This document shows, piece after piece, positions 2,246 to 22,386 of a DNA stretch of 64,000 nucleotides. Origin of the DNA: Candidatus Babeliales bacterium (GTDB lineage: Bacteria; Babelota; Babeliae; Babelales; Vermiphilaceae); contig CAVUQO010000002.1 of assembly GCA_963743635.1 (NCBI GenBank), forward strand, positions 160,001 to 224,000. The letters run 5' to 3'. Each line of letters opens with the position of its first letter. Within the stretch, counting starts at the first letter, position 1. A program made the position numbers and the translations under genes. The notes below the pieces were generated by a model. That model did no database searches. It was not told where the DNA came from and saw only the letters and a list, made by a program, of their open reading frames with translations.

Positions 2246-2331
2246 AAAAATGTCCTTTAAAAAGGGAGGCCTGCCATTCATTTTTTTCAGCTGCGAGGGC
2301 AGCTCTCAGCTTACGAGGATTGAAAAATGAA

Positions 2332-2341
2332 TGGTGTGCCC
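2332..2341 (+). repeat. Left att core (displaced tRNA 3' end)
   Basis: TGGTGTGCCC, identical to 20133-20142 and followed by a 25-codon open extension in the recombinase frame. Confidence 0.75.
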
Positions 2342-2508
2342 TAGCGGACTATTTCGGGAACTTTGTCATTGATAATAATATCATGTCTTCGGTAAAAACA
2401 TTAATGTCGGCTGCATAGATTATTAGTAATGCGCCCGCAAGCTATGATAAAATTGACTATCAGCTCGGTCTGAACCTTTTATGTATAGTTATTCAAGAAG
2501 AAGTAGTC

Positions 2509-3702: not shown

Positions 3703-3822
3703 GCAACCACACAATCAGATATCGAATCCTATATCGTCATTATAGGCACTTAATTATGCCTCTATCACCAGAGATTTAAGCGACCATGTTGTCGACTCGA
3801 CAAAAACCAGACTCTCCACGAC

Positions 3823-4291: not shown

Positions 4292-4509
4292 AGCGTAACT
4301 ACTTTTCTTATCTAAAATTTTCACTACGACGCGACATGGAAAAAAAGGGATGCGCACCTTCAGAGCGCTTATGCATAGACAATAACAAACACACATTTCA
4401 AATACATATTGGCAATAAACCCCAAGGAGCTTCATATGTAGCCTCATTTGATAATTTTGACGATGAAGAAAATGTCTTAACGTGCTCGTACGGACTGCTT
4501 AATTCTTAA
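4288..4509 (+). CDS. Hypothetical protein
   Basis: 73-aa ORF with ATGA overlap to the upstream gene. Confidence 0.5.
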   Translation: MKRNYFSYLKFSLRRDMEKKGCAPSERLCIDNNKHTFQIHIGNKPQGASYVASFDNFDDEENVLTCSYGLLNS

Positions 4510-4613
4510 AATCAGTACCACTTTAAAAAATCAGTTCATCTTCACGATACAAGGTGATTTAAAAAAAAAGGGGCCATCGACTGATATAGATAGGCCCCCA
4601 TAGGAGATTTAGT

Positions 4614-6211
4614 ATGGAAAATAATAACAAAAAAAGCGCCTATTCGACAACCAAGACAAAGGCGTAGCGATCTCATAGAATCAGCAAAAAAACAATGGGA
4701 AGAAGATGCAAATCTATTGGCGCAAGAGAAAGCTGACATCGGCTATTCAGATCTTCTCTTGGGACGCATTTTTAGAACTCTCGCTCCATGCCCTCGATAT
4801 CGAAGTACAATCAAAAATAATCGAACTACAAGATCGATATAAAGATCTGCAAGCTCGCCAGGCAATACATATGGGCGGAAGACAAAGTCATTGACGAATT
4901 CAACAAAAAACATGCCGTAGTGCACGTCGATCAAACCTACATTCTTACCGAAAAAATCAATATGTTTGGTGGTCAGGATTTTTCACTAGAGAAATCGACA
5001 ATCCTTCAGGACATATTATGAAGACGAAACGATTGTATGTATTGATGGAATAGAGCGAAGCAAGGCAGATATATGGCTTAAAAGCCCTAAGCGGCGCAAA
5101 TATAAGGGGATAATCTTTGACCCTACGATCAACAGAATCGTACCAAGGATTACTATAATCTCTGGAAAGGCTTTAGTAGAGTCTCCGATTCAAGGCAATT
5201 GTAAGAAATATTGGGACGCATGTAAAAGAAAACATTTGCGATAACGATGAAGATGCTGTACGATATATTTACGAAAATGGTTAGGATACATTTTTCAAAA
5301 GCCAGCACGAAGTGCATACCGCATTAGTATTATGCGGATCTCAAGGTGTAGGCAAAGAATAGTTTTGTTGAACCACTTGGCATTCTTCTCGGGCTCACAC
5401 TATGCCCCGCTGAGTAGCATTACAGAGTTAGTGTCTAATTTTAATTACCATCTAAAAAATGCCGTATTCATTCATGCCAATGAAGCCTTCTGGGGTGGCA
5501 ATAAGAAAGATATTGGCACAGTAAAGGCTATGATTACAGAGACAAAGATGTCTCGATCGAAGGGAAAGGGAAAAGATCGCATTGTTGTGAGGAATTTTAA
5601 GCATGTAATTCTCAGCAGTAATGAAGATTGGCCTAGTTCATCTTGATCGCTGATGATCGACGCTTCTTTGTCTTACAAGTTTCAGAAAAACATAAAGAAG
5701 ATCAGCGTTATTTCAACGCAATAAAGGAAGAATTAGACAATGGCGGACTATGAGGCACTCTTGCATGATTTGCTGCATGAGGATTTAAAGGGTTTTAATC
5801 CGCGTAAATTACCTTCAAGTTCGGCTTCTTTTCCTATAAAAATGCGTAGCGCGGATTCTGCACATAGATATATTTATGATGCGCTTAATCAGGGTGGATT
5901 TTCAATAGGATTGTTACCTGACAATGATCTACCGGTATGGCAAGAGGAAATACCCAAAAAGATGTGTTTATGATGATTACAAAGCTTGGTGTATATCTGA
6001 CAATGAGAATTCGTTATCCATGGAGCAATTTGGTAAGGTATTCAAGAAATTAATCATATCAATAGATGATAAAAGACCTGGGGGCGGATAACGCGCGCGA
6101 TGCTATAAATTACCGAGTCTCAGACAAGCTCGAAAGGATTTTAGTGAAGCATTCAAAGAGAACCCGGAGAACATTTTTGATGATTACAAATCAGAGGAGG
6201 AAATAATTTAG
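4614..6211 (+). pseudogene. Primase-associated helicase/NTPase (DUF5906-like), multiply frameshifted
   Basis: TAGGAG + ATG 4614; fragments give Walker A 'CGSQGVGK', 'FIHANEAFWGGNKK', 'ILSSNEDW', 'DDRRFFVL'; stop TAG 6209-6211. Breaks may be read errors. Confidence 0.75.
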
Positions 6212-6434
6212 TCCAGGATCGGTCCAGGAATAAGGCAATAGAAAAAGATGCTTAAAACAAACTATAGTCCATGATGTCCATGTAGTCCGGGTTATTTCAA
6301 CGCTAGAAATACAATCTTGTTATGAGATGCGAATATAATTGCGAGAAATAAAGTCGCCTGGACTGTATGGACACCGTGGACAACGCCGTAAGATACGTAT
6401 TTTTACCACAGTGATACATGGACCAAGCGTGGAC
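6211..6434. repeat. Mirror-symmetric array of ten GTCC/GGAC heptamer boxes (candidate replication origin)
   Basis: GTCC(A/G)(G/T)G boxes start at 6211, 6222, 6267, 6276, 6285; inverted TGGAC boxes end at 6363, 6372, 6381, 6423, 6434. Confidence 0.7.
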
Positions 6435-6452
6435 GAGAAGGAGAAAAAGAGC

Positions 6453-7478
6453 ATGACGATTCTTGAATTGGCGCACCAAGCCGGCATAAGACCAAAATGG
6501 GTAGCAAGCACAAATGGTGGCGAATATCATTCACCATGTCCAGCATGTGGTGGTGAAGATAGATTTTACATTCAACCACATCGACCAATGAGTAACTGCA
6601 TCGGCTCTTATTGCTGTCGTCAATGCGGTACATATGGAGATAGTATTGAGTTTGCTCGGCAATTTCTTAATTACTCGTTTGAAGAGGCTATTTCAGCACT
6701 GAATGTTGTTGTAACAGCAAAAATGACATCTTCGATATTCAATGTTTCTCCTACTTACAGAGTATCCGTTCTGCGAAAACCGCCCCAGGAATGGATGATA
6801 AAGGCTACTGCATTTGTTGAGCATGCACACAAAAGCCTTCTGCACAATGAACAATTTTTAACTTATCTGGAATCACGAGGTCTGCCATTAGCCGCTGTTG
6901 AGCGCTATAAGCTGGGTTGGATACATACGAACTTATTCTTGCCTAGAATGAGCTGGGGACTAGAGGAACAACTCAAGCAAGATGGAAAATCGAGCTCATT
7001 ATGGATACCAAAGGGATTGGTAATTCCAAGCATCAATCAAAAAGGTTCAGTAATTCGACTAAAAGTACGCAGAAGTGATTGGAATGAAGATGATACATTG
7101 CCCAAATACGCAGCAATATCTGGGAGTATGAATGGAATGGCCATAGTGGGTTCACCACAATGCTCTACTATGCTTGTCGTAGAATCGGAGCTTGATGCTT
7201 ATGCAATTGACTATGCTGCTGGGGATGTTGTTTGTACGGTTGCTGTTGGTAGCAATATCAAAAATCCTGACAATATCACAGATCGCTTGGCAAAAAATGT
7301 AGCGCGGCTGCTTATATGCCATGACAATGATAAAGCGGGGTTGCAAATGCTTACAAAGTGGAAGACCCTATATCCTAAGGCAAGGGCATGCACGGTGCCC
7401 TCTGGTAAGGATGCCGGAGAGTACATTCAGCATGGTGGTAATATAAGAACATTAGTCTCTAATTTTATAAAGGAATAA
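6453..7478 (+). CDS. Primase: zinc-binding domain + Toprim domain
   Basis: EYHSPCPACGGEDRF...CCRQCG; VVESELDA; CHDNDKAG; GKDAGE; AAGGAG upstream of ATG 6453. Confidence 0.85.
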   Translation: MTILELAHQAGIRPKWVASTNGGEYHSPCPACGGEDRFYIQPHRPMSNCIGSYCCRQCGTYGDSIEFARQFLNYSFEEAISALNVVVTAKMTSSIFNVSPTYRVSVLRKPPQEWMIKATAFVEHAHKSLLHNEQFLTYLESRGLPLAAVERYKLGWIHTNLFLPRMSWGLEEQLKQDGKSSSLWIPKGLVIPSINQKGSVIRLKVRRSDWNEDDTLPKYAAISGSMNGMAIVGSPQCSTMLVVESELDAYAIDYAAGDVVCTVAVGSNIKNPDNITDRLAKNVARLLICHDNDKAGLQMLTKWKTLYPKARACTVPSGKDAGEYIQHGGNIRTLVSNFIKE

Positions 7479-7480
7479 GC

Positions 7481-7849
7481 ATGGAAGATAATAACATACA
7501 AATTGGATGGTTGCCTGAAAACCTGACTCAGGAAACTCAAATGGCTGACGCATTATGTGAATACGCTTCGAGACCAACATCTATCACGCTGCATCCTTTC
7601 GCCTTTGCAAAAAAAATATCCGTAAAAGATTTTGAAAGCTTGGCTGACTTGCCTGAGGATGGACAACAAGTAATTTTACCAAATGCAGCCTATATATGTC
7701 TTAACCTCTTGGAGGCAAGAACAAAGGACATTGGTGGTTTTTGCGAAATGTATTGGCAAGGCAAAGATGGTCTATATTGGAAGGAATTACATATATTCGA
7801 CGAAATAACTGGAATAACATGCCAGAGATTCCTCGAACCAATCTGCTAA
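7481..7849 (+). CDS. Hypothetical protein
   Basis: 122-aa ORF directly after the primase, AAGGA RBS. Confidence 0.6.
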   Translation: MEDNNIQIGWLPENLTQETQMADALCEYASRPTSITLHPFAFAKKISVKDFESLADLPEDGQQVILPNAAYICLNLLEARTKDIGGFCEMYWQGKDGLYWKELHIFDEITGITCQRFLEPIC

Positions 7850-7850
7850 T

Positions 7851-8516
7851 CTAAATTCTCTCAACATAAGCATCATATAAATCCGATGGCACATGGAAGA
7901 AATAGGGATCTCCAATGAGATATTCAGCACGCTCTCCGTACCAATCACGCAATTCCTTATCTGTTGCGTTAAAAGCCATCTCATCGTATTCGACGTATTT
8001 TCTTCTAAGTTTTTGAAATGTAGAGTTTTTCATCCATGGTGGTTTTTGCTTAAGAGAGCCACCTCGATTTTTCAGAAAATTCTCAATGTCATAGCTTGCG
8101 TTTTTACAACGCTCTGAAGGACGAAGCCTTTGTGAGTAATAGCCCAGATTGGCGCACTTTCGACATAAATACATGCCTTTAACACAATAGAGTTTTCGCA
8201 TCCGCTTATCGCATTTCGGACAATGAAAGAAGCGATAAAATCCGCCATAGTTGCACGATTTCTTCTCAACGGGTATTGCGTATGAGCCGCCGCTATATTG
8301 AACTAGAAGGCTATCATCATCTTGCAGAAAAGCCTTCAACGAATAGCGTGGAATCGAAAGGGATAATTTATCTGCGCTTTCTTTAACAAGCTGCACTGCT
8401 TCTGGGTGCTTAAACATATCAAATGAATCGATCTCGCTGAGCCAGAATGCTGAGCAGAGTGATTTCGGTATATGTTGCTTCTTAATCCTCCAATACCAAT
8501 ACCAATTCATATGCAC
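7851..8516 (-). CDS. Zinc-finger protein of a mobile-element-associated type
   Basis: YGGFYRFFHCPKC...KLY...YLCRKCANLGYYSQ...KPPWM. Confidence 0.7.
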   Translation of the reverse strand: MHMNWYWYWRIKKQHIPKSLCSAFWLSEIDSFDMFKHPEAVQLVKESADKLSLSIPRYSLKAFLQDDDSLLVQYSGGSYAIPVEKKSCNYGGFYRFFHCPKCDKRMRKLYCVKGMYLCRKCANLGYYSQRLRPSERCKNASYDIENFLKNRGGSLKQKPPWMKNSTFQKLRRKYVEYDEMAFNATDKELRDWYGERAEYLIGDPYFFHVPSDLYDAYVERI

Positions 8517-8660
8517 TCTTTTCTATTTATCGAAATGTCCAGGTTAAATGACCTAATGGCTTCAACATTTTACTCATAAACTGATATACTATTTTCACAA
8601 TTATACCATATCAATGCTTAGACAAAACATAAAATATCACCCTAACGGAGGCCCGCCCTT

Positions 8661-9227
8661 ATGACCATACATAATTATATCTTTCGTATTATGCTAATCA
8701 GTAATCTTGTTATCTTTTCATGTTATGCAGCTCAAGAATTAAAGGTACTAAAGGGGAGTGATCTTATGAATGATCCTCAGGTAGAATTGAATTTAAAGGC
8801 GGTTTACTTTAAATCTTTTAACGAAGTGTATCGCAATCATTGGTCGATGGAATTCGAAGAAGAAGTTCTTGAAGGTTTTAATACGTACATTGAACGATTT
8901 AAACAATCAAATGATATGGTGCTCGTGGTGGCGACTATGGATGATGCGCTCGCAGGGTGGATACTATTTCAAAAGGAACAACAAAGAGCAATTGTGGAAA
9001 TTATATGCATCAGCCCAGAATATCAGCGAAAAGGTCTTGGTAAAAAACTTATTTTTTCCTTCCGAGAATGTTGGTCTGACCTTACCAACCTTGCAGTCCT
9101 AACACGTAAGATTAATGCTTTTTCGCCCTTATTTTACGAATCACTCGGATTTAGAAAAACTAATTTTATGCTGCCAGAATATAACCCGTCTGATGTACAA
9201 GGCTATGAATTAGATCTCTCTGTTTAA
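8661..9227 (+). CDS. GNAT N-acetyltransferase with N-terminal signal peptide
   Basis: ISPEYQRKGLGKKL acetyl-CoA motif; FYESLGF. Confidence 0.85.
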   Translation: MTIHNYIFRIMLISNLVIFSCYAAQELKVLKGSDLMNDPQVELNLKAVYFKSFNEVYRNHWSMEFEEEVLEGFNTYIERFKQSNDMVLVVATMDDALAGWILFQKEQQRAIVEIICISPEYQRKGLGKKLIFSFRECWSDLTNLAVLTRKINAFSPLFYESLGFRKTNFMLPEYNPSDVQGYELDLSV

Positions 9228-9258
9228 ACGCCCCTACAATTATCACACAAGGATTAAC

Positions 9259-10134
9259 ATGGAAGTAATTATCGATACATCCCTAGTAAAGCGCTTGATT
9301 GCCACTCAATTCCCTCAATGGGCAGACGTACCTATCAAACCAGTCGAAAAACAAGGGTGGGATAATAGAACGTTCCGTTTAGGAAATAACATGCTCATTC
9401 GTCTGCCAAGTGCGCAAAGGTACGCTTTGAAAGTAGAAATAGAACAGCAATGGTTACCCAAACTTGCCCCACATCTCCCTCTTGAAATTCCGGTGCCGCT
9501 CGCAATGGGAAACCCTTCTCATGAATATCCTTGGCATTGGTCTATTTATAAATGGATTGATGGGGAAGCAGCTTCGCTTGATCGCATATCCGATTTAAAT
9601 CAATGTGCTCAATCATTAGCAGAATTTTTAAGGGTACTGGAATCTATTGATGCAACGGGTGGACCTTCTACTGGACCACACAATTTTTATCGAGGCGGTC
9701 CACTGAAAACATACGATGATCAAACCAAGCAAGCTATAGATATTCTTAAGGATAAAATTGATGGCCAAACGATAACTAATATTTGGGATACTGCTCTGAG
9801 TTCTCAATGGCAAAAAAAACCAGTTTGGGTTCACGGGGATATTGAAGCAGATAATTTACTCGTCAAGGATGGCAATCTTAATGCGGTTATTGATTTTGGC
9901 GGCTTAGGAGTAGGTGATCCGGCATGTGATTTAGCAATTGCATGGACCTTCTTTAAGGATGAAAGCCGCGCTATATTTCGCAATTCACTATCATTAGATG
10001 ATGACACGTGGGCACGTGGACGCGGCTGGGCATTATGGAAAGCCCTGATAGTATGCGCCGAACTTACAGGAACCGATAATAAAAAAATCGAAAAATATAA
10101 AAGAGTTTTAGGCGAAGTAATAAAAGGAAAGTGA
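9259..10134 (+). CDS. Aminoglycoside phosphotransferase (APH) family kinase
   Basis: GWDNRTFRLG, WVHGD, VIDFG, GDPACDL, ARGRGWALWK. Confidence 0.92.
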   Translation: MEVIIDTSLVKRLIATQFPQWADVPIKPVEKQGWDNRTFRLGNNMLIRLPSAQRYALKVEIEQQWLPKLAPHLPLEIPVPLAMGNPSHEYPWHWSIYKWIDGEAASLDRISDLNQCAQSLAEFLRVLESIDATGGPSTGPHNFYRGGPLKTYDDQTKQAIDILKDKIDGQTITNIWDTALSSQWQKKPVWVHGDIEADNLLVKDGNLNAVIDFGGLGVGDPACDLAIAWTFFKDESRAIFRNSLSLDDDTWARGRGWALWKALIVCAELTGTDNKKIEKYKRVLGEVIKGK

Positions 10135-10143
10135 AATCGATTT

Positions 10144-11151
10144 ATGACGTTTAAAAAATACACATTGTTGATGTTAGGTTTTATCCTGCTTTTAACTTCT
10201 GTGGCTTTGTTCTACATACAAAATAACAAAAATAAACTGGAAAGCGCATTTAAACAAATGTTATTTGATATACAACAAAACTCGATCAAAAATTTTGAAT
10301 GGCAAGAACGAGACTGGCAAAATTACCATAATAACCAAATAAAAAGACTGCCTATATTTACCAAAAAATATTTTTATGACTGCATTGAGGACGCATTAAA
10401 AGACTTGCAGGACAATCATAGTCTCCTCATAAGGAGGCATAATGGTTCAACCGATACATCAAACGAACCTGTAGAAAAGTTTTCCATTAAAGTTGAAGGA
10501 GGAATAGGCATTATTAATTTCCCAACTTTGGTAACAGAAGTTAATCAGCTGGATGCAATATTGCATGAAGATTGGGTAGTTGAAGCTAATAAAAAATTGA
10601 AGAGATGGCGCCAAAAGTTACTGATGGTTGGATAATTGATCTCACTCAAAATGCTGGCGGCAATATGTTTCCGATGCTTGCGGCATTGAGCTATTTTTAT
10701 AATGAACCTAATATTGGCGGTTTCTATTCTGTTATAAAAAACAAAACAGAAAAAACGCTACTTATCGTTTGATGGCAAATCATTTAAATTTGATGCCCAA
10801 GATTTTTTTACCTATAAAACAACATTTAAAACGAACCAAAACAAGTTGCCGGTGGTAGTTTTAATAGGCAAAAATACCGCAAGTTCAGGAGAGTTCTTAG
10901 CGTTAGCATTAAAAAGACAAAAGCATGTAATTATTGCCGGACAAGAATCTTATGGTATGGCAACTGCAAATGAAGTTATGCAATTACCTCACGATTTGGG
11001 AAATTATATGCTCACTGTCGCTTATTATTTAGATACCAATAACGAACCATTATTAGAGAAAAAAGTTAGTCCATCATTTACATTAAAAGATAATGAAAAT
11101 ATAAGAAGTCAGGCAAAACAACTTATAGAAAATAAGCTTGAACAAATTTAA
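10144..11151 (+). pseudogene. S41 family peptidase, frameshifted
   Basis: After ~10625 another frame reads WIIDLTQNAGGNMFPM; 10846-11151 has TASSGEFLA and GQESYG. Confidence 0.75.
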
Positions 11152-11223
11152 GGGGCGACGCTGCAACCGGTTCTTACTTATGAAAAAATTTTTAATCACC
11201 TACTCCAATGCAAGGAAAAAATA

Positions 11224-12489
11224 ATGATAAGTAAAAACGTCTTGTTACCTTTAAGTTTTATAGTAGTGCTGATAGTAGGGTTATGTGCCTATAAGCATTG
11301 TTTTTCTCATAAACTCAACCTTGAAACAACGAATCCAGCTCTTTTGCAAGAAATAACCGATAAACTTTGCACAATTTTTGGTTCAGATACCCACATGCAA
11401 TCAGTAGCGCAACTCAGTGAGCCTGAACGCAATTGGGTGCTACGCATTACGCTTCAAAGTCCCGTAAACACAGTTCCCAAGAGCGTAATTTTCAAACAAT
11501 TCGTTAAAGAAAAGTCTGTGCAAGACGACAAACAAGCCTTCGCTCGTTTCGCAAGAGATTGGGCCGGGCTTGAATTTTTAAGCAGTATAAAAACAGAACA
11601 ACCTTTAGCGCCTCGCTTTTATGGAGGTAATACGCAGTATCGTTTTATATTGTTTGAAGATTTGGGAGAGAATGTTAGCTTAATGAGCTCGTTAAGAAGG
11701 GGAGATGCGCAAGCAGCAACGTTAGCGTTAGAGCGATTTGTGAAAACCTTTGGCCAAATGCATGCAAATACTTATGGAAAATCAGATGAATATCTTGCAA
11801 TTTTGCATGCGATAAATCCGGCTGCAATCCCATGGCAGGATGAGTTAAAAACCATTGTTAATAAAACTAATTCTAACCTTGCATTAACGTTAAAGGCAAT
11901 AGGGATACCTTATACCCCAGATATAGAAAGCGAGATAAGCACGATTATAAAAACGGCTCTTGAGCCTGGCCCTTTTACAACATTTGTTCATGGTGACATG
12001 TGTCCGGGTAACACTTTTGATTATCCAGCAAAAAATGAATTACTGCTTATAGATTTTGAATGGGGATTCATGCGCAATGCGCTATTGGATGGTACCTATC
12101 TTCGGATGAGTATGCCAAATTGTTGGATTGAGGAAAATGCAGGAACTATCCCGGAAGATTCAATAGAATCACTTGAAAAACTTTACCGACAAGAACTCAT
12201 GAAAAAAATTCCGGCCGCTCAGAATGATGAAATGTTCAACTGTGCGTATGTACATGCTTGCGCATATTGGATGCTGAAATCTGCATTAATAGTGCACCAT
12301 ATTTTAAATCAAGATAAGGAAATATTGGCAAGAGCTCGTGTTTTATCTGATTTGCAAACGTTTGTTGCGGTTTCAAAAAAATATGAACATTTGCCGCATC
12401 TCAGAACAATGGTAGAGCAAATTTTAAAAGAATTAAGTATTCGCTGGCCCAAAGATAAACCGTTAGATATGTTCCCCGCTTTTCAATAA
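11224..12489 (+). CDS. APH/choline-kinase-like phosphotransferase with N-terminal membrane anchor
   Basis: FVHGDMCPGN, LIDFEWG, ILFEDLG. Confidence 0.8.
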   Translation: MISKNVLLPLSFIVVLIVGLCAYKHCFSHKLNLETTNPALLQEITDKLCTIFGSDTHMQSVAQLSEPERNWVLRITLQSPVNTVPKSVIFKQFVKEKSVQDDKQAFARFARDWAGLEFLSSIKTEQPLAPRFYGGNTQYRFILFEDLGENVSLMSSLRRGDAQAATLALERFVKTFGQMHANTYGKSDEYLAILHAINPAAIPWQDELKTIVNKTNSNLALTLKAIGIPYTPDIESEISTIIKTALEPGPFTTFVHGDMCPGNTFDYPAKNELLLIDFEWGFMRNALLDGTYLRMSMPNCWIEENAGTIPEDSIESLEKLYRQELMKKIPAAQNDEMFNCAYVHACAYWMLKSALIVHHILNQDKEILARARVLSDLQTFVAVSKKYEHLPHLRTMVEQILKELSIRWPKDKPLDMFPAFQ

Positions 12490-12510
12490 GATATTCATTA
12501 GAGAGGAAAA

Positions 12511-13908
12511 TTATTTTGCTTGCTTTGGATATGCCTTAGTACTTACGTTTCCGGGTTGAACCAAATCTACTTCAGCAACGTTTCCCGTCGCATCGAGGGT
12601 AAAATTCATCATATAATCGTCAGGTAGACCGTGTAGCTTGAAACTGTTTTCTTTAAAGGGGACTAATCGCAAATTGCCTTCCTTTTTAAAGAGAGCAAAT
12701 AATAAGCCCTTGATCAAGATGACTTCAAAAGTTGAGGTTGGATGATTTGGTGGTGTGTATTCAAAGTTACCCACAAATTTTTGCAGATACTCATCGCGCA
12801 TCAATGCAGCATCGGGAGCAGTAGGAAGTTTGTAGGTCTCGGGATCAAGAATATGTAATCCAAGAGGATCTACACTATTATGAGCATTGCTTAGTATTAC
12901 GACGCCACGCTTGGTCTGCATATTAAAGCCAAGAAAACTGGTATATCCACCAGTGGCTCCATTGTGCCATATAATCTGATCATTGTTTTGTTTTGTGATG
13001 TGCCAACCAAGTCCTACCGTATTGTGTGTATCAGCAAATTGTTCTTGATGAGATGTTGTCATCGCCGGATACAATGGAGTAGTAACAAGACCCATATTTG
13101 CGGCGAGAAATTGCGTCATATCCTTGATGGTAGAGCGTAGGGCGCCTGCGCCGGATAAAGCTGACAGATCCCAATTTTCTACTACTTTGAACATGGCATG
13201 CCCTGATGCTAATTGCGTTTGCAACTCAGGAGAAAGGGTTATTGCGGTATGATTCATGCCAAGCTTAGTTAAGATGCGATCTTGAATGACTTGTTCGTAC
13301 GGTTTATGCTCAATTAATTCTAAAATATGCCCCAAAATCCCCATTCCTAGATTGGAATATTCGCAAATTTCTCCCGGTTTTTTACTCAAATCAGTTGAAC
13401 TGAGACATGTGTATAATTGCTCAGTGGTGTAATCGGCATATGGATTAGCGGGATTTTTCATCTGCATATTGCTCGGCAAGCGAGGTAAGCCGGATGTATG
13501 CGTCGCTAAATGGCGCAGCGTAATTTTTGCTTCATCTTTTTGCGGTATTGTAAGTTGGGGTAAATATTTTTCAATCGGATCATCGAGGGACACCAAACCT
13601 TCACTAACCATGTCCACGAGTGCAATAGTGGTAAACACTTTGGTAATAGACCCGATATCGAATACCGTATCTTGCGTTATTGGACTAGCGTTATCGATAG
13701 TTTTCGTGCCGTAGGTGTAATAGGATATGTGACCATTATCAATGAAACCAATGGCAGCACCGCTTCCCTCACTTTCTTTAACATAGTTTTGAAGTAGTTG
13801 TTGAATATCTAAATTCACGTAATTTCCTTTATTATGGTGCATAGTTTTCACTATAACCGTTGCTGCTATTAAGCCTATGATGATACTAATGATCCATACT
13901 TTTTGCAT
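12511..13908 (-). CDS. Serine hydrolase (class C beta-lactamase/PBP-like)
   Basis: SxxK (GSITK), YSN, HNG motifs; LATHTSGL. Confidence 0.92.
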   Translation of the reverse strand: MQKVWIISIIIGLIAATVIVKTMHHNKGNYVNLDIQQLLQNYVKESEGSGAAIGFIDNGHISYYTYGTKTIDNASPITQDTVFDIGSITKVFTTIALVDMVSEGLVSLDDPIEKYLPQLTIPQKDEAKITLRHLATHTSGLPRLPSNMQMKNPANPYADYTTEQLYTCLSSTDLSKKPGEICEYSNLGMGILGHILELIEHKPYEQVIQDRILTKLGMNHTAITLSPELQTQLASGHAMFKVVENWDLSALSGAGALRSTIKDMTQFLAANMGLVTTPLYPAMTTSHQEQFADTHNTVGLGWHITKQNNDQIIWHNGATGGYTSFLGFNMQTKRGVVILSNAHNSVDPLGLHILDPETYKLPTAPDAALMRDEYLQKFVGNFEYTPPNHPTSTFEVILIKGLLFALFKKEGNLRLVPFKENSFKLHGLPDDYMMNFTLDATGNVAEVDLVQPGNVSTKAYPKQAK

Positions 13909-14000
13909 GTAAAGTTTCCTTGATTTAAGTGATTAGTTCAAAATTTGCCCTAAAGATTTTGCTCAAAAAACGCTACTATTGCTTTATTGATTAATGCAAT
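13825..14000. repeat. ~175 bp diverged direct repeat, copy 1 (copy 2 at 15087-15262)
   Basis: 43 bp identical core 13906-13948 = 15168-15210; also spans the shared signal-anchor coding region and a hydrolase 3' end. Confidence 0.85.
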
Positions 14001-15170
14001 GGTGGCAAAGCCGTCTGCGCTACCGATTGTTGTATCCATATTAAAAATATGCGTATTGTTTTTAAAGAGTGGCATTTCCTTTGTAATCATTAAGTCAGAA
14101 AAGCCAATATGTGTGATGCCTGGTATCATTAATGATTGTATTGATGCTGATGTAATCATTGTATTGTAATTTTTTTTCGTGTTCGCAAGCATTTGTTCAT
14201 TGCTCACTCTCCCTGCAGTAATTTGCTCGATAGGAACACCCAATTTTTTTGCCAATGCCTCATCCGAAGTATATAAGTTATCCATATAGCCATGTGCATA
14301 AATAAACAAAAATGGTTTTTTAAGGGTAGTAATGTCTTTTTCCGGAATAAAATCAAGAGCTATTCCTGCCTTAAAACGTGCATCATACAGACATGCATTA
14401 AATGCTGCATCTCCGCCCATTGAATGGCCCATTACACCAAGGCGATGCGTATCAATAAGTTGGTATAAGATGCTCTTTTCGTCATTGTTTATTTGGATCA
14501 TGTGATCCAGAGCAGATTGTACATCGTGTAACCATAGTTGTTGTTCTTGTTTGGTTGGCATGAATAATTGCGGATTGAGTTTCTCTGGGTTGCACGTCAC
14601 GCTACGGTTATCAGGAAATATAACTATATTGGCATAATGTGTATGGGCTATCGATCCCACTATATAACCATGGCTTGCAAGTTCTTCACAAAATACTGTA
14701 TACATGTCTGCTTGGCATCCGAGATAGCCATGAGAAAAAAGAATGAGTGGAAAAGGTTGTTCTGTGCGCAAGGGTGAAGCGTTTGTTATTGCATGTGTAT
14801 AAACGTGATCTACTGACATGATATCTTGCTCTGGGAATCCTTGTTGTTTCAACATTTGCTTTATTTCGGGAATGCCATGTTCATTATAGACTTCAAGCTT
14901 TTTAGAGGTGTTTTTTGTAGCCGGATACCACACTTTGACCATCAATTCTCTTGGTGCATTAAGATCGTAGATATCTTTTCTTTTTTGGTCTATTACGTGA
15001 ACATCAATGGTTCCGACATCATAAGGTCCAGTCAATGCTGGAAATTCAAAAATCGCTTCGGTTTCTTTTTCCATATGAATACCCATTCCCTTATTGTGGT
15101 GCATCGTTTGCACTATAACGGTGGCCGCTACTACGCCTATGATAATACTGAAAATCCATATTTTATTCAT
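13950..15170 (-). CDS. PAF-acetylhydrolase-like alpha/beta hydrolase
   Basis: RELMVKVWYPA, FSHG, ELASHGYIV, GHSMGG nucleophile elbow, HIGFSD. Confidence 0.88.
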   Translation of the reverse strand: MNKIWIFSIIIGVVAATVIVQTMHHNKGMGIHMEKETEAIFEFPALTGPYDVGTIDVHVIDQKRKDIYDLNAPRELMVKVWYPATKNTSKKLEVYNEHGIPEIKQMLKQQGFPEQDIMSVDHVYTHAITNASPLRTEQPFPLILFSHGYLGCQADMYTVFCEELASHGYIVGSIAHTHYANIVIFPDNRSVTCNPEKLNPQLFMPTKQEQQLWLHDVQSALDHMIQINNDEKSILYQLIDTHRLGVMGHSMGGDAAFNACLYDARFKAGIALDFIPEKDITTLKKPFLFIYAHGYMDNLYTSDEALAKKLGVPIEQITAGRVSNEQMLANTKKNYNTMITSASIQSLMIPGITHIGFSDLMITKEMPLFKNNTHIFNMDTTIGSADGFATIALINKAIVAFFEQNL

Positions 15171-15297
15171 GTAAAGTTTCCTTGATTTAAGTGATTAGTT
15201 CAAAATTTGCATTAAAGATTGCGCTGGAAAAACGCTACCATTGTTTTATTAATTAATGCAATTGTTTGATAGGGATTCACATTTCCTACATCTGCTA

Positions 15298-16146
15298 TCA
15301 GATTCCATGGCCATCGCCAATCCAGCGATGTTCCCTAATCAAATATTCAAATTGTTTCAATGCATCCCAAATATTCCACGCCTTAGGCAATGTTTCTGTG
15401 TGGCGATAATGCATTAAGGTACAAGGAATTGAAGCTGAATCGCAGGTCTTACCAATCGATTGCAGTGCAGTAAGAGAATCATCAAAGGCAATAATATGCG
15501 AAGGTTTAAGCGTTGCGTAGGTTAGAAATGCCTGTAAGACTTCTCCCTTATTTTGTTGATTAGCGCACAAAATGCCTTTGTATAGCACGGGATAATTGGA
15601 TCTGTATAGGGGGAAATTGTTAAAAACATGATCTGCATAGTGTGGACTGAATTCAATCCCCATACTTTCCAACATAGTGTAGCGCCAAGCTGGCATGCTT
15701 TCGATAACACCATAGGAACCAGATTCCATACTGGTTAAGGCCAAAACAGTAGCATGTTTTTCTTGAAAGTTTTTAATAACATCTACGACTGACGGTTCAG
15801 TGAGCATAAATGGAACGGTTGCCCACAGTAGACTATAGGCATTTTCCCAATTGGTGAATATGTATGTTGGATATCTGAGTATGAACAATAGTTTAAACCA
15901 CCAGGTAAAATAATTGGGATGAAGAGCTGGCGATGTTATCAAGGTGTCATCAACATCAAATAATACCAATGTATCTTCATTTACCTCTGGAAGTGGATCT
16001 TGATATGAGGTAATAGTACGCACTGGATAATCATAATGCGGCTCTTGGTTCTGATCCTTTTTATAGAAGAAAGCGAGCACTATAGCAATAACCGCTATGA
16101 CTGCAATAAGGAGCAATGTTTTTAAAATCGTTTTTTTGATACTCAT
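15298..16146 (-). CDS. HAD-superfamily DUF2608-like protein
   Basis: LVLFDVDDTL, ALTS, NKGEVL, FDDS. Confidence 0.8.
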   Translation of the reverse strand: MSIKKTILKTLLLIAVIAVIAIVLAFFYKKDQNQEPHYDYPVRTITSYQDPLPEVNEDTLVLFDVDDTLITSPALHPNYFTWWFKLLFILRYPTYIFTNWENAYSLLWATVPFMLTEPSVVDVIKNFQEKHATVLALTSMESGSYGVIESMPAWRYTMLESMGIEFSPHYADHVFNNFPLYRSNYPVLYKGILCANQQNKGEVLQAFLTYATLKPSHIIAFDDSLTALQSIGKTCDSASIPCTLMHYRHTETLPKAWNIWDALKQFEYLIREHRWIGDGHGI

Positions 16147-17942
16147 AGTGGATATTCTCTAACACAACTACGCGATTGTTGGTCGAAGATTGCTACCTTT
16201 TCAAATAATATAGACGCATTTGTAGTATTCAATAATGCGCGAGAAACACGCTTAGATTCGGCAAGAATGCGCTCTCTGATGCGATCAAAAATGCTTTTAG
16301 TTTGTGATGCATCTTTGATGCGGTCCGTTATGGATGCAGTTCTAATTCGGCCAAGGCCTATGTGTGGATGATATGGAAATCGTTCGCTTTGCGCCTCATT
16401 GTATAATGCTCCACCATGAGATGCATTACATTGGTGCATGCTACCTTTTATCGCACTATTTAAACGCGATAATTCGCCGGCAGGATCATTAACCATAATC
16501 ACCAACTCATCATTGTTATTGCCAAAGAAGGCTACCTCTGGCGCGATATGCGCTTGATTCAATGCAAATTCATTTCTTTTATTTTCGACTATGTTTTTCA
16601 CGGCATCCGCAACAATATCTATTCCTGCATCCACCGAGACTTCATCGACGTAATACAAGGTCAATCGTTGCCAATCTTTAGGCAGAAAAAATTTAAAATC
16701 ATCATCAATGCTTAATCCAAGTTCTTCTTTAATAATCGTATTGATGGCGGGATTCAGCGTATTTTTTATTGAGGTCAACACAGGATTATCAAAAGATCCC
16801 TGAATGAATAAGGAATGCTTTTCTGCGGTTTGTGTTTTTTGAGAAGTTTCTCCCTGTTGCGCCTTCAGGTAGGTATCAAAAAAATTAACCAATAACGTTC
16901 GTGTGATTTGAATGCCTTCCAATGGATCAAGTTGTGACGGTTCTTCCCATTTGGCGATCACATAGAAATCGGTAAATGAGCCATGATCTGCCTTGGGTAT
17001 TTCATTATATTTGGTTGGTGCGGTGGCATTTTTGATGAGATCTTTGATTGGTTGGAGTGTTTTATCAGAATGAGGTGCAACGATGAACATGAATGGTGTT
17101 CTTAATGGTTGCTCCTGATTTAAGTCATACAGTTTCCCATCGATATCAGCACCCGCTTTAAAGCGTGTATCTATCTGACATGCTCCTACTGACGCACTGC
17201 CACCAAATGAATGCCCAAACACACCGAGATGCGCAAGATCGAGCTTGTTATGCAACATACTTTTTTCATCCGCATTCATCTTGAGCAGTTGATCGACCAC
17301 AAACTGAATGTCTTGAACCCATACGCGACATTCAGTTTCTCTATTTTTACGCCGTTGATCTTGATCAACTATTTTCTTCTCAGTGATGATTCTGCCATCA
17401 GGAAAAATAACCTTATCAGTCACATATGGATGATTGAGACCGACCACGATATACCCGTGACTCGCAAGTTCTTCTAATAATGAGGTATACATATTTAACG
17501 GCGCACCGCCTCCAGGAGAGAAGATAATAACGGGATAATGACCTGCAAGGATTGGTGCATTTTTAACTGAATGCGTTCGGAGCGTGTAGAGATAATCGAG
17601 TTTGTCGGCAGGAATATGTGCAGGCGGTTCTTGTAATTGTTTGATCACCGATTCGACGATGACAGGATGCGCATATAATGCTTTTTCTTCGTTGCCCGTA
17701 ATGCGCCCAGGATACCAGATTTGCAGCATCAACTCGCGATGGTCGTTGGGATTGTTGGAGTGACGCTCATGGCGATGCGTATCAATCAGATGATAATCTG
17801 TAGTACCAATGCCTAAAGCTCCCGTTGGCTTTGGCAATTGCATGGATTCAGTGGCATGGGTATGAGAATATGCTTCGTACATACCATATCCAACTGCGAA
17901 GGTGAGGATACAAGAAAGCGCATAGGCTATACTTTTTTTCAT
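16143..17942 (-). CDS. PAF-acetylhydrolase-like hydrolase fused to a 2H-phosphoesterase-like C-terminal domain
   Basis: GHSFGG and HGSFTD in the N-terminal ~360 aa; C-terminal RLTLYY...YHPHIGLGR. Confidence 0.75.
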   Translation of the reverse strand: MKKSIAYALSCILTFAVGYGMYEAYSHTHATESMQLPKPTGALGIGTTDYHLIDTHRHERHSNNPNDHRELMLQIWYPGRITGNEEKALYAHPVIVESVIKQLQEPPAHIPADKLDYLYTLRTHSVKNAPILAGHYPVIIFSPGGGAPLNMYTSLLEELASHGYIVVGLNHPYVTDKVIFPDGRIITEKKIVDQDQRRKNRETECRVWVQDIQFVVDQLLKMNADEKSMLHNKLDLAHLGVFGHSFGGSASVGACQIDTRFKAGADIDGKLYDLNQEQPLRTPFMFIVAPHSDKTLQPIKDLIKNATAPTKYNEIPKADHGSFTDFYVIAKWEEPSQLDPLEGIQITRTLLVNFFDTYLKAQQGETSQKTQTAEKHSLFIQGSFDNPVLTSIKNTLNPAINTIIKEELGLSIDDDFKFFLPKDWQRLTLYYVDEVSVDAGIDIVADAVKNIVENKRNEFALNQAHIAPEVAFFGNNNDELVIMVNDPAGELSRLNSAIKGSMHQCNASHGGALYNEAQSERFPYHPHIGLGRIRTASITDRIKDASQTKSIFDRIRERILAESKRVSRALLNTTNASILFEKVAIFDQQSRSCVREYPL

Positions 17943-18388
17943 AGATTTTCATCCTTTTCTTCTTTGTGGATACTCGCCTAGCGATTGTTGATCAAAGATC
18001 GCTATCTTTATTTCTTTTCAATCAACATCTTAAATTGATCATAATTGAACATTACCTGATCATTTGAGCTATCCAATATTTTATAATATTTGTACCATGA
18101 AGCTTTCAAGTAAAAAATGATATTTTTTAAGAATATAGGATAGGCAAATGCTTTTTAAGCATGATAGAAATGGACAAAAAAGTCCATCAAACCTCAATAC
18201 ACTGAAAAAAGAATATGCACTATACCTGCATTTCCCCCCATAAAACTGATCCTTTGATCGTCCAGAAGAATCGAAGAACATGTAGCATCAAGATGATGTA
18301 ACGCTATAGCCATAAGGCTCTTTGACTTCATTTTGAAAAAAGGGATAATAGTATCTATACAAAAAATTCAATATTCAGAAGGTAAGTC

Positions 18389-18565
18389 ATGGAAGAATCA
18401 GCTACATCAAAAAAGACCAAAACCACCCTTTATATGTCCCAGGAAGATGAACAACTTCTCGATGAGGTCTTCATTAAACGCCTCAGGGACCGTAATAAGA
18501 CAGATAGATCTAGCCTCATCTGCGAGGCTATTCGCCTGCTTTATGAAAAAGAACTAGGCAAATAA
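18389..18565 (+). CDS. Ribbon-helix-helix-like small regulator (58 aa, absent from the ORF track)
   Basis: Manual translation MEESATSKKTKTTLYMSQEDEQLLDEVFIKRLRDRNKTDRSSLICEAIRLLYEKELGK; AAGGT upstream. Confidence 0.7.
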   Translation: MEESATSKKTKTTLYMSQEDEQLLDEVFIKRLRDRNKTDRSSLICEAIRLLYEKELGK

Positions 18566-18671
18566 TATAAAAGTATATCCATGATCATATCCATAGAAGA
18601 TATCGCAACGATCAAAAAAGAATTTGGTTGCCCTCACTCAATAATCTAATCTCAAGAAAAGACATTCATCT

Positions 18672-20174
18672 ATGAACAAAGCTGTTATCTATGCCCGCGT
18701 CTCCTCCAAGGATCAAGAAGTTGAGGGATTCTCTATTCCAGCTCAGCTCAAGCTATTGAATGAGTATGCCAATAAGCATGGCCACCTTGTTATCCAAGAA
18801 TTTTTTGATGTTGATACTGGAAAAAAGGTAGCAAGAAAAGCTTTTACCGCAATGATAAAGTTGCTTAAGGATGATAGAACGATCCAGCATATTTTAGTAG
18901 AAAAAACAGATCGCTTAACAAGAAACTTCACCAGTTATGTCCAGATTGATAACTTGATCGACAATATAGGTCTACAGGTTCATCTTGTAAAAGAAAATTC
19001 TATAATGACCAAAGATTCTCGATCGAATGAAAAATTCATTTTTGGTATTAAGGTTCTTGTGGCAAAAAATTTTTCAGATAATTTATCCGAAGAAGTAAAA
19101 AAGGGTATGTTGGAAAAAGCCTCCCAGGGAATGTATCCATCAGGTGCGCCGTATGGCTACATGAATGTCAGAGAACCGGGAAAAAGAAAAGGCAGAATTG
19201 AAGTCGATCCCAAAGCTGCACCCTTTGTTAAAAAACTGTTCGAGCTGTACGCCACGGGAGAGTACTCATTACTAAGGCTTCGTCAAAAAATGATTGCTGA
19301 TGGGATGGTCTATAGAAACGGCAAAAATTTCTACACAAGTACAATAGAACTTATCTTGAAAAATGAGTTTTATACCGGCGTCTTTTATTGGGCTGACCGC
19401 AAATATGAAAATGCGTTGCATGACCCTATCGTAAGCAAAGAACTCTTTCGACGCGTGCAAAACGTGCTCGCTAATCCTTACAAAAGCAAATCAAGAAAAG
19501 GGCTATTCCCTTACACCAATCTCATTAGATGCGGTATATGTGGCTGTAGATTCACTGCCGTCATCAAAAAAGAAAAGTATATTTATTATCATTGCACCGG
19601 TGCTAAAGGAAAATGCCCACAAGATTACTTAAAACAAGAAATGATCGAAGCGCAGTTTCTCTTATTATTCAAGAGCTTGTATATCACAGATGAGGTGCAG
19701 GCCATCATCTTACAAAGTATACGTGATAGCATGAAGGATAAAATTGAATACCATAATGCTATGGTAGAACAGTTAACGCAGCAAATTAAGCGCCTACAAA
19801 ATAGACTCGATCAAGCATATCTGGACAAGTTAGACGGTAAAATAGGCGAAGAGTTTTGGTACAGCAAAGCGCAAGAATGGTCTGGGGAAAAAGAAAATCT
19901 AAGCATCAAGCTTCTGGCATTTCAAAGAGCGGATACGCTCTATCTTGAAAACACCAACTTTATCCTGGAACTCGCTAAAAACGCGGCACAGAGGTTTGAA
20001 TCCGGTTCTGTCGAGGGAAAGAGGCGCGTCATTGATACCATAACAGGGAACTGCGTTTACAAAGATGGAAACCTCGATGTAGAGCTGAAATCCGTGTTCA
20101 GTATGATAGTGTCTACCGAAAAAACTGGAAACTGGTGTGCCCGGCAGGATTTGAACCTGCGACCTACGGATTAG
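18672..20174 (+). CDS. Large serine recombinase (integrase)
   Basis: AVIYARVSS catalytic motif, DRLTRN, APYGY, zinc ribbon CGICG...YYHC, coiled coil; last 13 codons and the stop lie antisense to the tRNA. Confidence 0.95.
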
Positions 20175-20209
20175 AAATCCGTTGCTCTATCCAACTGAGC
20201 TACGGGCAC
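20133..20209 (-). tRNA. tRNA-Arg(UCU)
   Basis: Reverse complement GTGCCCGTAGCTCAGTTGGATAGAGCAACGGATTTCTAATCCGTAGGTCGCAGGTTCAAATCCTGCCGGGCACACCA; anticodon TCT; encoded CCA. Confidence 0.97.
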
Positions 20210-20368
20210 GTACTAATATTTAGAGATAAATATCTGAAAGAAAGGAATATGAGATTATTATAGCCTAAACTGTCAAAGATCTCAAATAAAGACCTTAAAA
20301 ATCATATTCCTATCTATTATCACTGAAAAATAGGAAATGCTGGATGCATTTCATTAATGTATATAATC

Positions 20369-21094
20369 TTAATCATCGTCCAGCCCAACACTGGTGCAGG
20401 GGGTATCGCAAATTTGTTCAGCCAGATAAGAATCTGGAGAATTAAAAGAACAGGGGGAAGGAGGAAGATCAGGCGGGTTGCACGAGCTTTGACACGTAAG
20501 ATCGCCAAAAAGCAACTGTTGTAAAAAGACGGTGGCATAAGGCAACTCTCCTGCCACTGGCTCTGGAACGGGAAAGGTAAGTACAAATGCCAGGTCGAAT
20601 CGGCAATCTGGGTACTTCTTATTAATATAAGAACATTTAAAGGGCGCTTGATACCCAAAAGCATTCAGTAGGTCATGAATTGAGCTATGGTTCCAACAAA
20701 TGACAATATTTTTCCCATCATACTTACTCGAATTGAGAATGAAATTTGCAATTTCATTGACCTGATATCCGTTAAAAGGAGAATGAATGGGCAGTTGAAG
20801 TAATGCTCCTGTTGGCATCATTGTTTCTATGGTGCGAGGGATAAGGCGATCGGATTTAGGAACGGATCGGGAAGCAAAAAGGGCAGCGGGCGGTCCAAAA
20901 TTAAGAAGGTAATCCGTTTGTGTTAAGTAATAAGCCAGAGCTGCAGCTCTTTCTTCTCCCTGCTGAGTTAAGCCACGAGTCACCGGATCTTTTTCTCCAT
21001 GGCGAATGATAATGACTTGAGCCGGAAGTGCATGAAGTAACGCAGACCAAACTATGCAATGCATAAATAAGCATAAAAAAAGGTTTTTCATCAT
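20369..21094 (-). CDS. Secreted histidine phosphatase family protein
   Basis: Signal peptide, IIRHGEK, ICWNH. Confidence 0.85.
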   Translation of the reverse strand: MMKNLFLCLFMHCIVWSALLHALPAQVIIIRHGEKDPVTRGLTQQGEERAAALAYYLTQTDYLLNFGPPAALFASRSVPKSDRLIPRTIETMMPTGALLQLPIHSPFNGYQVNEIANFILNSSKYDGKNIVICWNHSSIHDLLNAFGYQAPFKCSYINKKYPDCRFDLAFVLTFPVPEPVAGELPYATVFLQQLLFGDLTCQSSCNPPDLPPSPCSFNSPDSYLAEQICDTPCTSVGLDDD

Positions 21095-21099
21095 TCCCC

Positions 21100-22125
21100 T
21101 TAAAAATCAAAGCATACGGAAAAAGCCAGACCATTGAGAGAGAGATTTCGGTCATTGCTTACTAGCCCGAATCTATCCCCTGCAAGTTCAACTTGGTCAA
21201 AGAAAAGATGATATTCCCATCCGAGCGCATAAGTGAGAGCGTAACGTTCTTTGCACAAAAAGGTCTTACACGAGATTCCTCCCATTGCATCGAGCATCCA
21301 TCGAAATCCGCGTGGGCAGCAATTCCTCTGGTAACGTAACGACTTTAAATAGGTTTCCGTTTGGCACACTTTAAAAAAACCATAGTTTAAAGTACCGCAT
21401 GCACTTGCATAGAGGCTCAATTCCCTTGTCAAATTGATTTGAGGCTCTATTCCTAATCGAGGACCGATCCCCCAAAAATTATTTTTCATGTTGATAGCAT
21501 CATATCCAAAGGTACTATCCAGTGCAGGTAAATTAAGACCATTGGCAAAGATTCCACCCCCATAGCGTACATCAAGATCTTGATTAATCCACGCAGCACG
21601 AAGACCGAAAAAAGGACGTAAAAACCATCGATTATCCCAAGAAAAATCTCGCCCAAAATCAAGATCCAAAAGATTAAGATTGAGATTCCAATACATTTTT
21701 GCTTTTGATACCCAATCGAAAGGGATAATATCATCAGCTAAAGACCAGATGGGAAACATTCCTAAACCTATGTTTTCATTAGTCGTTCTACATTGTTGTG
21801 CATGGGTATTGAAATGAGTCAAATTTATGTTCATATCCCACTTGCAGCTTGGGAAAATATATCCAAAGCCGATACGATAACCAACATTCCCGGTTAAATG
21901 AGATTTAACATCTGGCTGCAACGTCACATTGGCGGTAGTAAACAGATTGGTCATTTGATTGGTCAGAACGACGCTCTTTTCTTTTGGAACAAAATAAAGC
22001 AAGTCAACATTCAACGAAAGCTGAGTGTTGCATTCTGTCTGATTTTCTGCGCTGAGCATATTTCCATACAATGGAACTGTTAAACAAAGCATAAGAAGCG
22101 CAAGACTGCATAACCTATTTTTCAC
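21100..22125 (-). CDS. Outer-membrane beta-barrel (Lpg1974/MOMP-like)
   Basis: Signal peptide; GYRIGFGY, LRPFFGLRAAWINQ, FWGIGPRLG; C-terminal FDF; GTG start after GGAGG. Confidence 0.75.
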   Translation of the reverse strand: MKNRLCSLALLMLCLTVPLYGNMLSAENQTECNTQLSLNVDLLYFVPKEKSVVLTNQMTNLFTTANVTLQPDVKSHLTGNVGYRIGFGYIFPSCKWDMNINLTHFNTHAQQCRTTNENIGLGMFPIWSLADDIIPFDWVSKAKMYWNLNLNLLDLDFGRDFSWDNRWFLRPFFGLRAAWINQDLDVRYGGGIFANGLNLPALDSTFGYDAINMKNNFWGIGPRLGIEPQINLTRELSLYASACGTLNYGFFKVCQTETYLKSLRYQRNCCPRGFRWMLDAMGGISCKTFLCKERYALTYALGWEYHLFFDQVELAGDRFGLVSNDRNLSLNGLAFSVCFDF

Positions 22126-22386
22126 GGTTCCTCCCGACAATTTGTATGGACCAATTGATACTAGAAAATTTAAAATATAGCTGTCAATGGATTATCATTA
22201 AGGACGAATTGTGAAATTCGAAAATAGATAAAAAAGAGTAGGCCAACTCAAAATTTCGAATCAAGAAAAAAAGAGTTAGCCAAATGCTAAAAAGTATACA
22301 GATTTCATCACCCAAAATACGAGGCATAAAAAGACAGTAATAGACCCAAGTTAATAGGTCGAGATGTTTTCTTTGAATCATGCCCT

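Follow-up and report, generated by a model that had tools for sequence, protein, structure and literature searches.

A probable mobile island of Dependentiae whose serine integrase gene spans its own attP and whose integrase tail depends on the state of the DNA

The integrase gene and the ends of the island

The window (the whole stretch of DNA that was analyzed, 64,000 nucleotides long) contains an ORF for a large serine recombinase of 500 aa, which is the integrated isoform of an integrase (Table 1). Profile searches assigned only serine recombinase domains to it, namely Resolvase (PF00239; 1.5e-23), Recombinase (PF07508), and Zn_ribbon_recom (PF13408), and none of a tyrosine recombinase. 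The catalytic residues R9, S11, and S12 are invariant in 30 integrase homologues, as are the cysteines of the zinc ribbon (C287, C290, C308, and C315) in the homologues. The protein combines a resolvase catalytic domain holding the Arg and Ser with a Recombinase domain and a four-Cys ribbon with a coiled coil, which is the order of parts (Resolvase, Recombinase, zinc ribbon, long coiled coil) in the integrases of A118/LI, TP901-1, phiC31, Bxb1, and SPbeta (SprA). Sequence similarity to characterized enzymes is weak (TP901-1 catalytic domain, E 1e-7; A118 C-terminal domain, E 1e-5). The closest named homologues among the best 120 listed are labeled Candidatus Chromulinivorax, Babeliales, or Dependentiae. 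Within the phylum, 85 of 261 genomes contain a homologue at E ≤ 1e-50.

Close to its 3′ end, the integrase ORF traverses TGGTGTGCCC in frame and then runs antisense through tRNA-Arg(TCT), the sole TCT tRNA found in the genome. TGGTGTGCCC is the antisense of the last ten bases of this tRNA (GGGCACACCA); the last 14 codons of the integrase (WCA included, stop excluded) overlap the tRNA gene, and the last 11 residues are tRNA-antisense. At the second copy of the core, the sequence reads on in the same frame as WCA-LADYFGNFVIDNNIMSSVKTLMSAA* (stop at 2416-2418). The window contains these two copies of TGGTGTGCCC versus 0.01 expected from shuffles, and the genome (1.45 Mb in three contigs) contains three. 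A previous reading made from the letters of the window (hereafter the sequence-only reading) had located the ORF, the core copies, the tail, and the stop, and all of these coordinates hold. Its main proposal, that the att core lies within the integrase ORF and integration swaps the C-terminus of the enzyme, is borne out by the cores, by relatives, and by joined tails (see below). In the integrated state, no ORF of at least 50 aa covers the tail exon; only circular or otherwise unintegrated DNA would encode the full integrase of 514 aa.

Table 1. Coordinates of features of the island and its borders within the window.
Feature	Position	Strand	Remark
Displaced native 3′ flank of tRNA-Arg, post-tRNA hairpin; B arm of attL	2260..2331	-	Same element after other tRNAs
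att core copy, attL; displaced last 10 nt of tRNA-Arg	2332..2341	+	GGGCACACCA on minus strand
Headless integrase tail exon: WCA + 25 codons + stop	2332..2418	+	In frame with integrase only after circularization
P′ arm, conserved, inside tail exon	2342-2364
Island body, 17.8 kb	2342..20132		Gene order matches G024 element
Conserved ORF	2509-3702
SpoVG-like	3995-4291
DUF5906 piece, 104 aa	5332-5646
Toprim primase	6339-7478
Cargo: GNAT, two APH-family kinases, S41 peptidase fragment, beta-lactamase-family hydrolase, two PAF-acetylhydrolase-like lipases, DUF2608	8661-17942
58-aa RHH-like protein; candidate regulator or directionality factor	18389..18565	+	Fold read from sequence
Large serine recombinase, 500 aa (integrated isoform)	18672..20174	+	Resolvase, Recombinase, Zn_ribbon_recom domains
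P arm of attP, within integrase 3′ coding end	20110..20132	+
att core copy, attR; 3′ end of intact tRNA-Arg	20133..20142	+
tRNA-Arg(TCT), intact	20133..20209	-	Now without hairpin, directed into integrase gene
Promoter-like site upstream of tRNA	20257..20285	-	TTGAGA-17-TATAAT, 11/12, consensus match only

A match of 10 nt is, on its own, weak evidence for a junction; when the 180 nt around the tRNA were scanned against the window, many chance matches of 9–11 nt were obtained. It is the context that makes the left copy a real junction, i.e., the hairpin flanking it, the conserved 23 nt next to it, and the gene order of the related element in G024. When read on the strand of the tRNA, the left core is followed by a hairpin element of ∼65 nt (ttcatttttcaatcctcg...aaaaatgaatgg). 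The same hairpin follows directly after the ...CCA of tRNA-Phe, tRNA-Gly, tRNA-Leu(CAA), tRNA-Met, and tmRNA (five of the nine other genes inspected), while the flanks of the tRNAs for Pro, Thr, Arg(ACG), and Val differ from it. Because this post-CCA hairpin is shared, positions 2260-2341 were taken as the native end and flank of tRNA-Arg, moved 17.8 kb away. On the right-hand side of the left core, 23 nt are conserved in further genomes, and the sequence there is homologous to integrase tails found elsewhere. The G024 element, counted from its own tail, is composed of the conserved ORF, the SpoVG-like gene, the DUF5906 piece, the primase, the small gene, and the integrase, in this order. The island has, like other islands in tRNA genes, the intact tRNA at one end and its displaced 3′ fragment, here of only 10 nt, at the other, and relatives possess the empty site.

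The hairpin element is palindromic and ∼65–75 nt long; apart from window positions 2260-2336 it was found on contig C2 near 526195, 280063, 247776, 44259, and 390043. Its appearance is that of a terminator common to several tRNA genes or of a REP-like repeat. On the minus strand between 19498 and 20132, no terminator-like site was observed after the tRNA until about position 19500. Given this arrangement and the strong promoter-like site of the tRNA, it is plausible that transcription reads through the tRNA and covers the end of the integrase gene in antisense.

The hexamers CCGAAA (20116-20121) and TTTCGG (2352-2357), which had been described as placed symmetrically about the core of the rebuilt attP, are indeed present, but they lie 11 and 10 nt from the core, respectively, so that they miss symmetry by one base, and they are not kept in relatives. 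There, a looser AAAWAST at −13 to −7 of both arms and a GT at the core center can be read by eye.

The small gene for the RHH-like protein is located 106 nt upstream of the integrase gene. Its product is 65% identical to the G024 homologue in a pair alignment (72% over a 43-aa tblastn match), and similar small genes precede the integrase by 3–11 nt at the loci L001, L002, and L036; in at least five of the seven elements inspected, a small gene is conserved at this place. No Pfam match was obtained for the RHH-like protein, and modeling of its complex with integrase residues 270–489 gave no verdict either way (score of 0.00, run without controls). PHROGs and Pfam gave no names for the small ORFs of the island beyond primase pieces. 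The DUF5906 piece next to the primase is 75–78% conserved in two other elements and is, by this conservation, probably a real small gene. The cargo may represent host-interaction enzymes of an intracellular parasite.

Occupied sites, empty sites, and joined tails in relatives

Loci of other genomes in which a DNA match runs from the tRNA into the integrase end were compared with loci lacking such a match. All five examined loci with the match, each from a different genus (G013, G002, G024, G017, and G038), are occupied, and the integrase reads into tRNA-Arg, the anticodon of which is CCT in G038. The homologues encoded there can be aligned over 500 aa with 49–67% identity, and their integrated ends are set by the tRNA antisense (WCA*, WCAR*, or WCARQDSNLRPTD*). 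All five examined loci without the match (G029, G039, G011, G014, and G034) contain TGGTGTGCCC and the tRNA but no integrase, so the empty tRNA-Arg site anticipated earlier exists in relatives; in G029, G039, and G011, a short hairpin-like repeat, read by eye, abuts the core. The presence of occupied and empty sites is indirect support for attP × attB recombination, which the integrase would catalyze. All 30 aligned homologues, some of which use other tRNA targets, keep the Trp of the core; its codon, TGG, corresponds to the encoded CCA read in antisense. Even in subfamilies that share only about 30% identity and use other tRNA targets, the gene is split at the same Trp codon.

Among the 120 best homologues listed, seven (P0006, P0007, P0011, P0041, P0062, P0067, and P0083) carry the same type of tail fused to the integrase (512–515 aa in total), e.g., ...NWCALSDYFSNFLYENINFFALKQLLYA and ...NWCALQDFLRNLIIDDGTMFAIKQFVMAA. 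A further five homologues end in long tails of another kind, which do not stem from a tRNA; four of these proteins are members of subfamilies in which another codon pair follows the Trp. The majority of the remaining listed homologues end no more than about 25 residues past the Trp, mostly with tRNA-antisense residues, and a few are truncated or end otherwise. None of the 12 long-tailed homologues, versus 38 of the 108 others, resides on a contig >25 kb (hand count), which fits with small free elements; the joined forms, known here from proteins alone, might also derive from tandem arrays rather than free circles. At the single metagenome locus where an integrase end is fused to a tail (L015), only a 56-codon integrase remnant is left. 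Viral contigs yielded no pattern match and no relative of P0007, and the search of genome contigs with P0113 yielded one relative, which was integrated, and no joined form. Four matches past residue 491, obtained when the phylum was searched with P0006, were rejected as joined tails; all of them are integrations in another tRNA.

Counting the window and the occupied loci of three of the five relatives, the core together with the P′ arm was found at nine sites; it was also found at 29 metagenome loci, 10 of which are of high GC content and mostly seem unrelated (one of these, L029, is tail-like). The ORF that continues in frame from the core is 20–35 codons long at 22 of 28 low-GC sites. Codons 1–11 of the tail are at the same time the P′ arm, with 84% nucleotide identity. 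Past the arm, in codons 12–26, nucleotide identity is 0.42 across 21 distinct tails. In this part, BLOSUM62 scores average +0.56 in the integrase frame versus −0.51 and −0.92 out of frame, and the three codon positions have identities of 0.38, 0.53, and 0.34, respectively. The tails conform to the pattern WCAL[SA][DE]YF[RSG][NT]F..[ED][DN]...[LIM]..[IV][KR][QK][LIF][LV]; the W-x4-D-x-F tail that the sequence-only reading had proposed to look for in homologues thus holds as WCAL[SA][DE]YF. By these measures, the distal tail truly belongs to the protein, is conserved, and is under selection at the protein level.

The proposed role of the tail and alternative explanations

The most probable explanation (roughly 0.8) is that the locus is an integrated mobile island of the Dependentiae (Babeliales type), in which the serine integrase gene spans its own attP and the tail of the enzyme depends on the state of the DNA. 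While the architecture, its conservation, and protein-level selection on the tail are established by the data described above, the course of events would be as follows. Recombination within the 10-bp identity at the acceptor/CCA end of tRNA-Arg(TCT) would part the last 25 codons from the gene, and the chromosome would then give rise to a 500-aa enzyme with a tRNA-antisense end. The tail would be a working module of the free-form enzyme, the amount or activity of which would follow the state of the DNA. Integration would also remove the hairpin from the tRNA, so that read-through could run antisense into the integrase gene. As to what the tail does, it is conceivable, at odds of clearly less than even, that it is a C-terminal degron matched to the ClpXP-less, Lon-type tmRNA system of this lineage; that it is a part tuning integration or directionality is proposed just as tentatively. 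The remainder of the odds falls to a C-terminus that is helpful but not regulatory.

Alternatively, the overlap of attP with the 3′ end of the integrase gene could be a mere by-product of compaction, with a tail that does not regulate anything and a clipped enzyme that is equal or somewhat weaker, and we regard this as possible, if doubtful. Part of the conservation would indeed be constraint on the DNA site, the first 11 tail codons being the P′ arm, and the integrated forms remain intact (488–500 aa) in many genomes. For P0006, one of the joined homologues, the AlphaFold2 model (mean pLDDT of 77) shows the expected domains and the long coiled coil (helices 338–385 and 391–442), while the tail, modeled as coil (484–502) followed by a short helix (503–511), is of low confidence (pLDDT 46–58) and is not docked in the monomer. 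What speaks for more than a by-product is that the amino acids of codons 12–26, outside the P′ arm, are conserved in a frame-specific manner, with little variation in where the stop falls, and that the same-Trp split is retained at about 30% identity and with other tRNA targets.

It is rather unlikely that the island is dead and domesticated, the integrase being permanently clipped and the element immobile. Such a state would agree with the cargo, which resembles host-adaptive enzymes, with the presence of just a 104-aa DUF5906 piece beside the primase, and with the lack of junction reads. Neither reads joining 20142 to 2342, which had been suggested as a check of excision, nor the excised chromosome were found in four soil, permafrost, and peat runs (Logan contigs compared with positions 2000-20400); they contained only short, low-depth pieces of the island with 0–5 differences. 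No sequencing run contains the locus, and the highest fraction of sampled words reached in any run was 0.19. One X1 contig covers 2335-2729 followed by 84 letters that were not placed on the window, and another ends at 20143; a joint of 5696 to 20145 was discounted, as one of its sides comprises only 20 letters. Immobility is at odds with the identity of both cores, with an intact integrase and tail ORF, and with a tail that keeps the family pattern, and the DUF5906 piece, being conserved in two other elements, is hardly a sign of decay. From the relatives, we infer that the island can be excised.

The sequence-only reading proposed that the terminal Ala-Ala directs the excised form of the integrase to ClpXP and that such a switch may take the place of an RDF; this now appears very improbable. 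The tail in the window does end in -LMSAA, and two joined homologues end in -MAA and -TAA, but -AA terminates only three of the 35 tails inspected and is, consequently, not conserved. Furthermore, the genome, which is 85% complete, yielded only AAA+ cross-matches below the cut-off for ClpX (TIGR00382) and no match for ClpP (PF00574). In six of the 41 genomes searched (its own and those of 40 relatives), ClpP-fold matches exceeded the cut-off, all of them weak and partial (20–27 bits, ORFs of ∼190–330 aa), and the relatives thus yielded essentially no ClpP. As ClpX and ClpP were not found, a ClpXP signal in the tail is not supported. Also, the small gene preceding the integrase in at least five of seven elements makes a separate cofactor possible. 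Finally, that the repeat arose by chance, the island ending elsewhere and the tail ORF being accidental, can practically be dismissed: the weakness of a lone 10-mer, the frequency of chance 9–11-mers around the tRNA, and a phage-type Bro-N gene just beyond the proposed left end with a homologue inside the element of G002 are outweighed by the displaced tRNA end with its hairpin, by the conservation of P′ arm and tail in relatives and joined proteins, by the G024 gene order beginning at the tail, and by empty sites ending at the same core.

For a tail that depends on the state of the DNA, degradation by Lon, which is present in the genome, is the form of the degron proposal to be considered. 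The tmRNA tag of the organism is ANDTFVPAFA (C2:43900-44261), and those of relatives end in APAFA, GPVFA, QPAFA, and GALA (L041-L044); ARAGORN found no tmRNA in the G013 locus, and G017 contains two full tmRNA matches about 10 kb apart. Alanine is the last residue in six of the seven joined tails (LYA, LFA, MAA, TAA, VFA, and LIA; the other ends in LLI) and in three of the four tails nearest to an intact integrase (SAA, LFA, and ASA; the other ends in LFN), but in only one of five other genome copies of the tail, one of 19 low-GC metagenome tails, and one of five other long (non-tRNA) tails. Of the 1116 ORFs of at least 150 aa in the genome, 7.4% end in A and 0.27% in FA; -FA was found at the end of five of the 35 tails, while the tail in the window ends in -LMSAA. 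Many metagenome tails extend 1–8 residues beyond an LFA-like motif, and conservation extends over the full length of the tail, farther than a minimal end signal would require. Taken at the level of these sequences, a degron of the Lon form is possible, but the data are uneven in this respect. As the tails are related to one another, counts drawn from them are not independent.

Members of the Mollicutes lack active ClpXP, and the tag of Mesoplasma florum, which ends in NYAFA, is read by Lon (excerpts of PMC9382460). The lineage studied here is similar in that the searches detected Lon but neither ClpX nor ClpP, and in that its tags end in -PAFA or -PVFA, a parallel which is noteworthy in itself; unlike in Mollicutes, reading of the tags of Dependentiae or of the integrase tails by Lon is a candidate mechanism by analogy.

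The DNA-state-dependent tail can be extended to a whole clade of tRNA-targeting integrases that use their own DNA state as a switch with mimicry of Lon-type tags (-FA); we consider this broader version improbable, though worth spelling out. Full enzyme would be made from the circle only, and integrase present after entry or excision would be short-lived. Upon integration, the degron would be lost and a stable, clipped enzyme would be poised for excision, the expression of which would be damped from the antisense side by read-through from the terminator-less tRNA. In relatives, arrays of orphan cores and tails would bound toxin–immunity cassettes, which the same enzyme may shuffle.

Comparison with known systems and observations at neighboring elements

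Like the island, the Myxococcus phage Mx8 targets a tRNA gene, and its attP is located inside the integrase coding sequence (IntP/IntX). Unlike the tyrosine recombinase of Mx8, the enzyme described here is a large serine recombinase, the swapped piece comprises 25 residues, and the identity with the target 10 bp. To our knowledge, the characterized large serine integrases have attP outside the gene and their targets in protein genes or intergenic DNA; the integrase of the island differs from them by a tRNA-end target and an attP inside the gene. The integrases of both Mx8 and SSV, tyrosine recombinases, extend across attP (as given in parts of PMC4383910), and integration of Mx8 provides its integrase gene with a new 3′ end, which changes the activity of the enzyme but does not destroy it (according to excerpts of a review, PMC6070905). 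The integrase of the island works like this class of genes spanning attP without being a member of it. The Islander paper of 2015 states, in the sections available, that tRNA genes are not among the known targets of serine integrases (PMC4383910), and the accessible parts of the open-access literature, including PMC12884075, describe no serine integrase gene that spans attP or targets tRNA ends.

The integration-dependent immunity of mycobacteriophages resembles the situation at the island in that attP lies inside a gene and integration changes the C-terminus of the product. These phages employ a tyrosine integrase, and their host has the relevant protease. In BPs, Brujita, and the cluster P phages, attP is situated in the repressor gene, and integration removes an ssrA-like tag and thereby alters the stability of the repressor (excerpts of PMC4557955 and PMC5764923). 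Unlike in the BPs type, the gene split here is that of the integrase, attP lying in no repressor gene, and degradation is only a candidate mechanism.

Large serine integrases are prized for genome engineering, in which the att sites and the RDF set the direction of the reaction. A natural family in which recombination rewrites its own enzyme would provide an extra, testable layer of control. An integrase set aimed at tRNA ends would represent a class of targets deemed unknown for serine integrases in the available sections of PMC4383910. For the Dependentiae, which are uncultured parasites of protists, the island would constitute a widespread vehicle of gene flow (integrase homologues in 85/261 genomes) bearing enzyme cargo.

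Several observations concern other elements at these sites. The gene with Bro-N and PHROG 15286 matches at 1382-2281 (minus strand) lies just outside the left end of the island; in G002, the element itself includes a homologue of this gene, and in G024 the homologue lies beside an integrase fragment beyond the orphan tails. These placements suggest remains of older elements at tRNA-Arg. The empty tRNA-Arg site of G029 (L003) is 1.2 kb away from a second hairpin with a degenerate core and tail-like sequence (∼5945-6000 and ∼7120-7225), which is, judging by these parts, probably the scar of an earlier element.

At L001 (G013:C1:995800-1015700), tandem units of ∼2.9 kb, which are 95–97% identical, occupy positions ∼10550-18900, and the end of each lies some 30 nt beyond an att core with an orphan tail. 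The units contain a gene of 496–643 aa with a common N-terminal part and a variable C-terminus, followed by a small ORF; one of these genes has a Colicin_D domain (5.7e-22). By its composition, the array looks like a series of toxin–immunity cassettes bounded by att half-sites. For orphan-tail arrays to arise by sequential integration, an attB beside the tRNA would be needed, and the occupied sites are without one. In the window itself, the minus strand at 21100-22140 encodes an outer-membrane protein of the Legionella_OMP family (1.3e-28), here in a genome of the Dependentiae.
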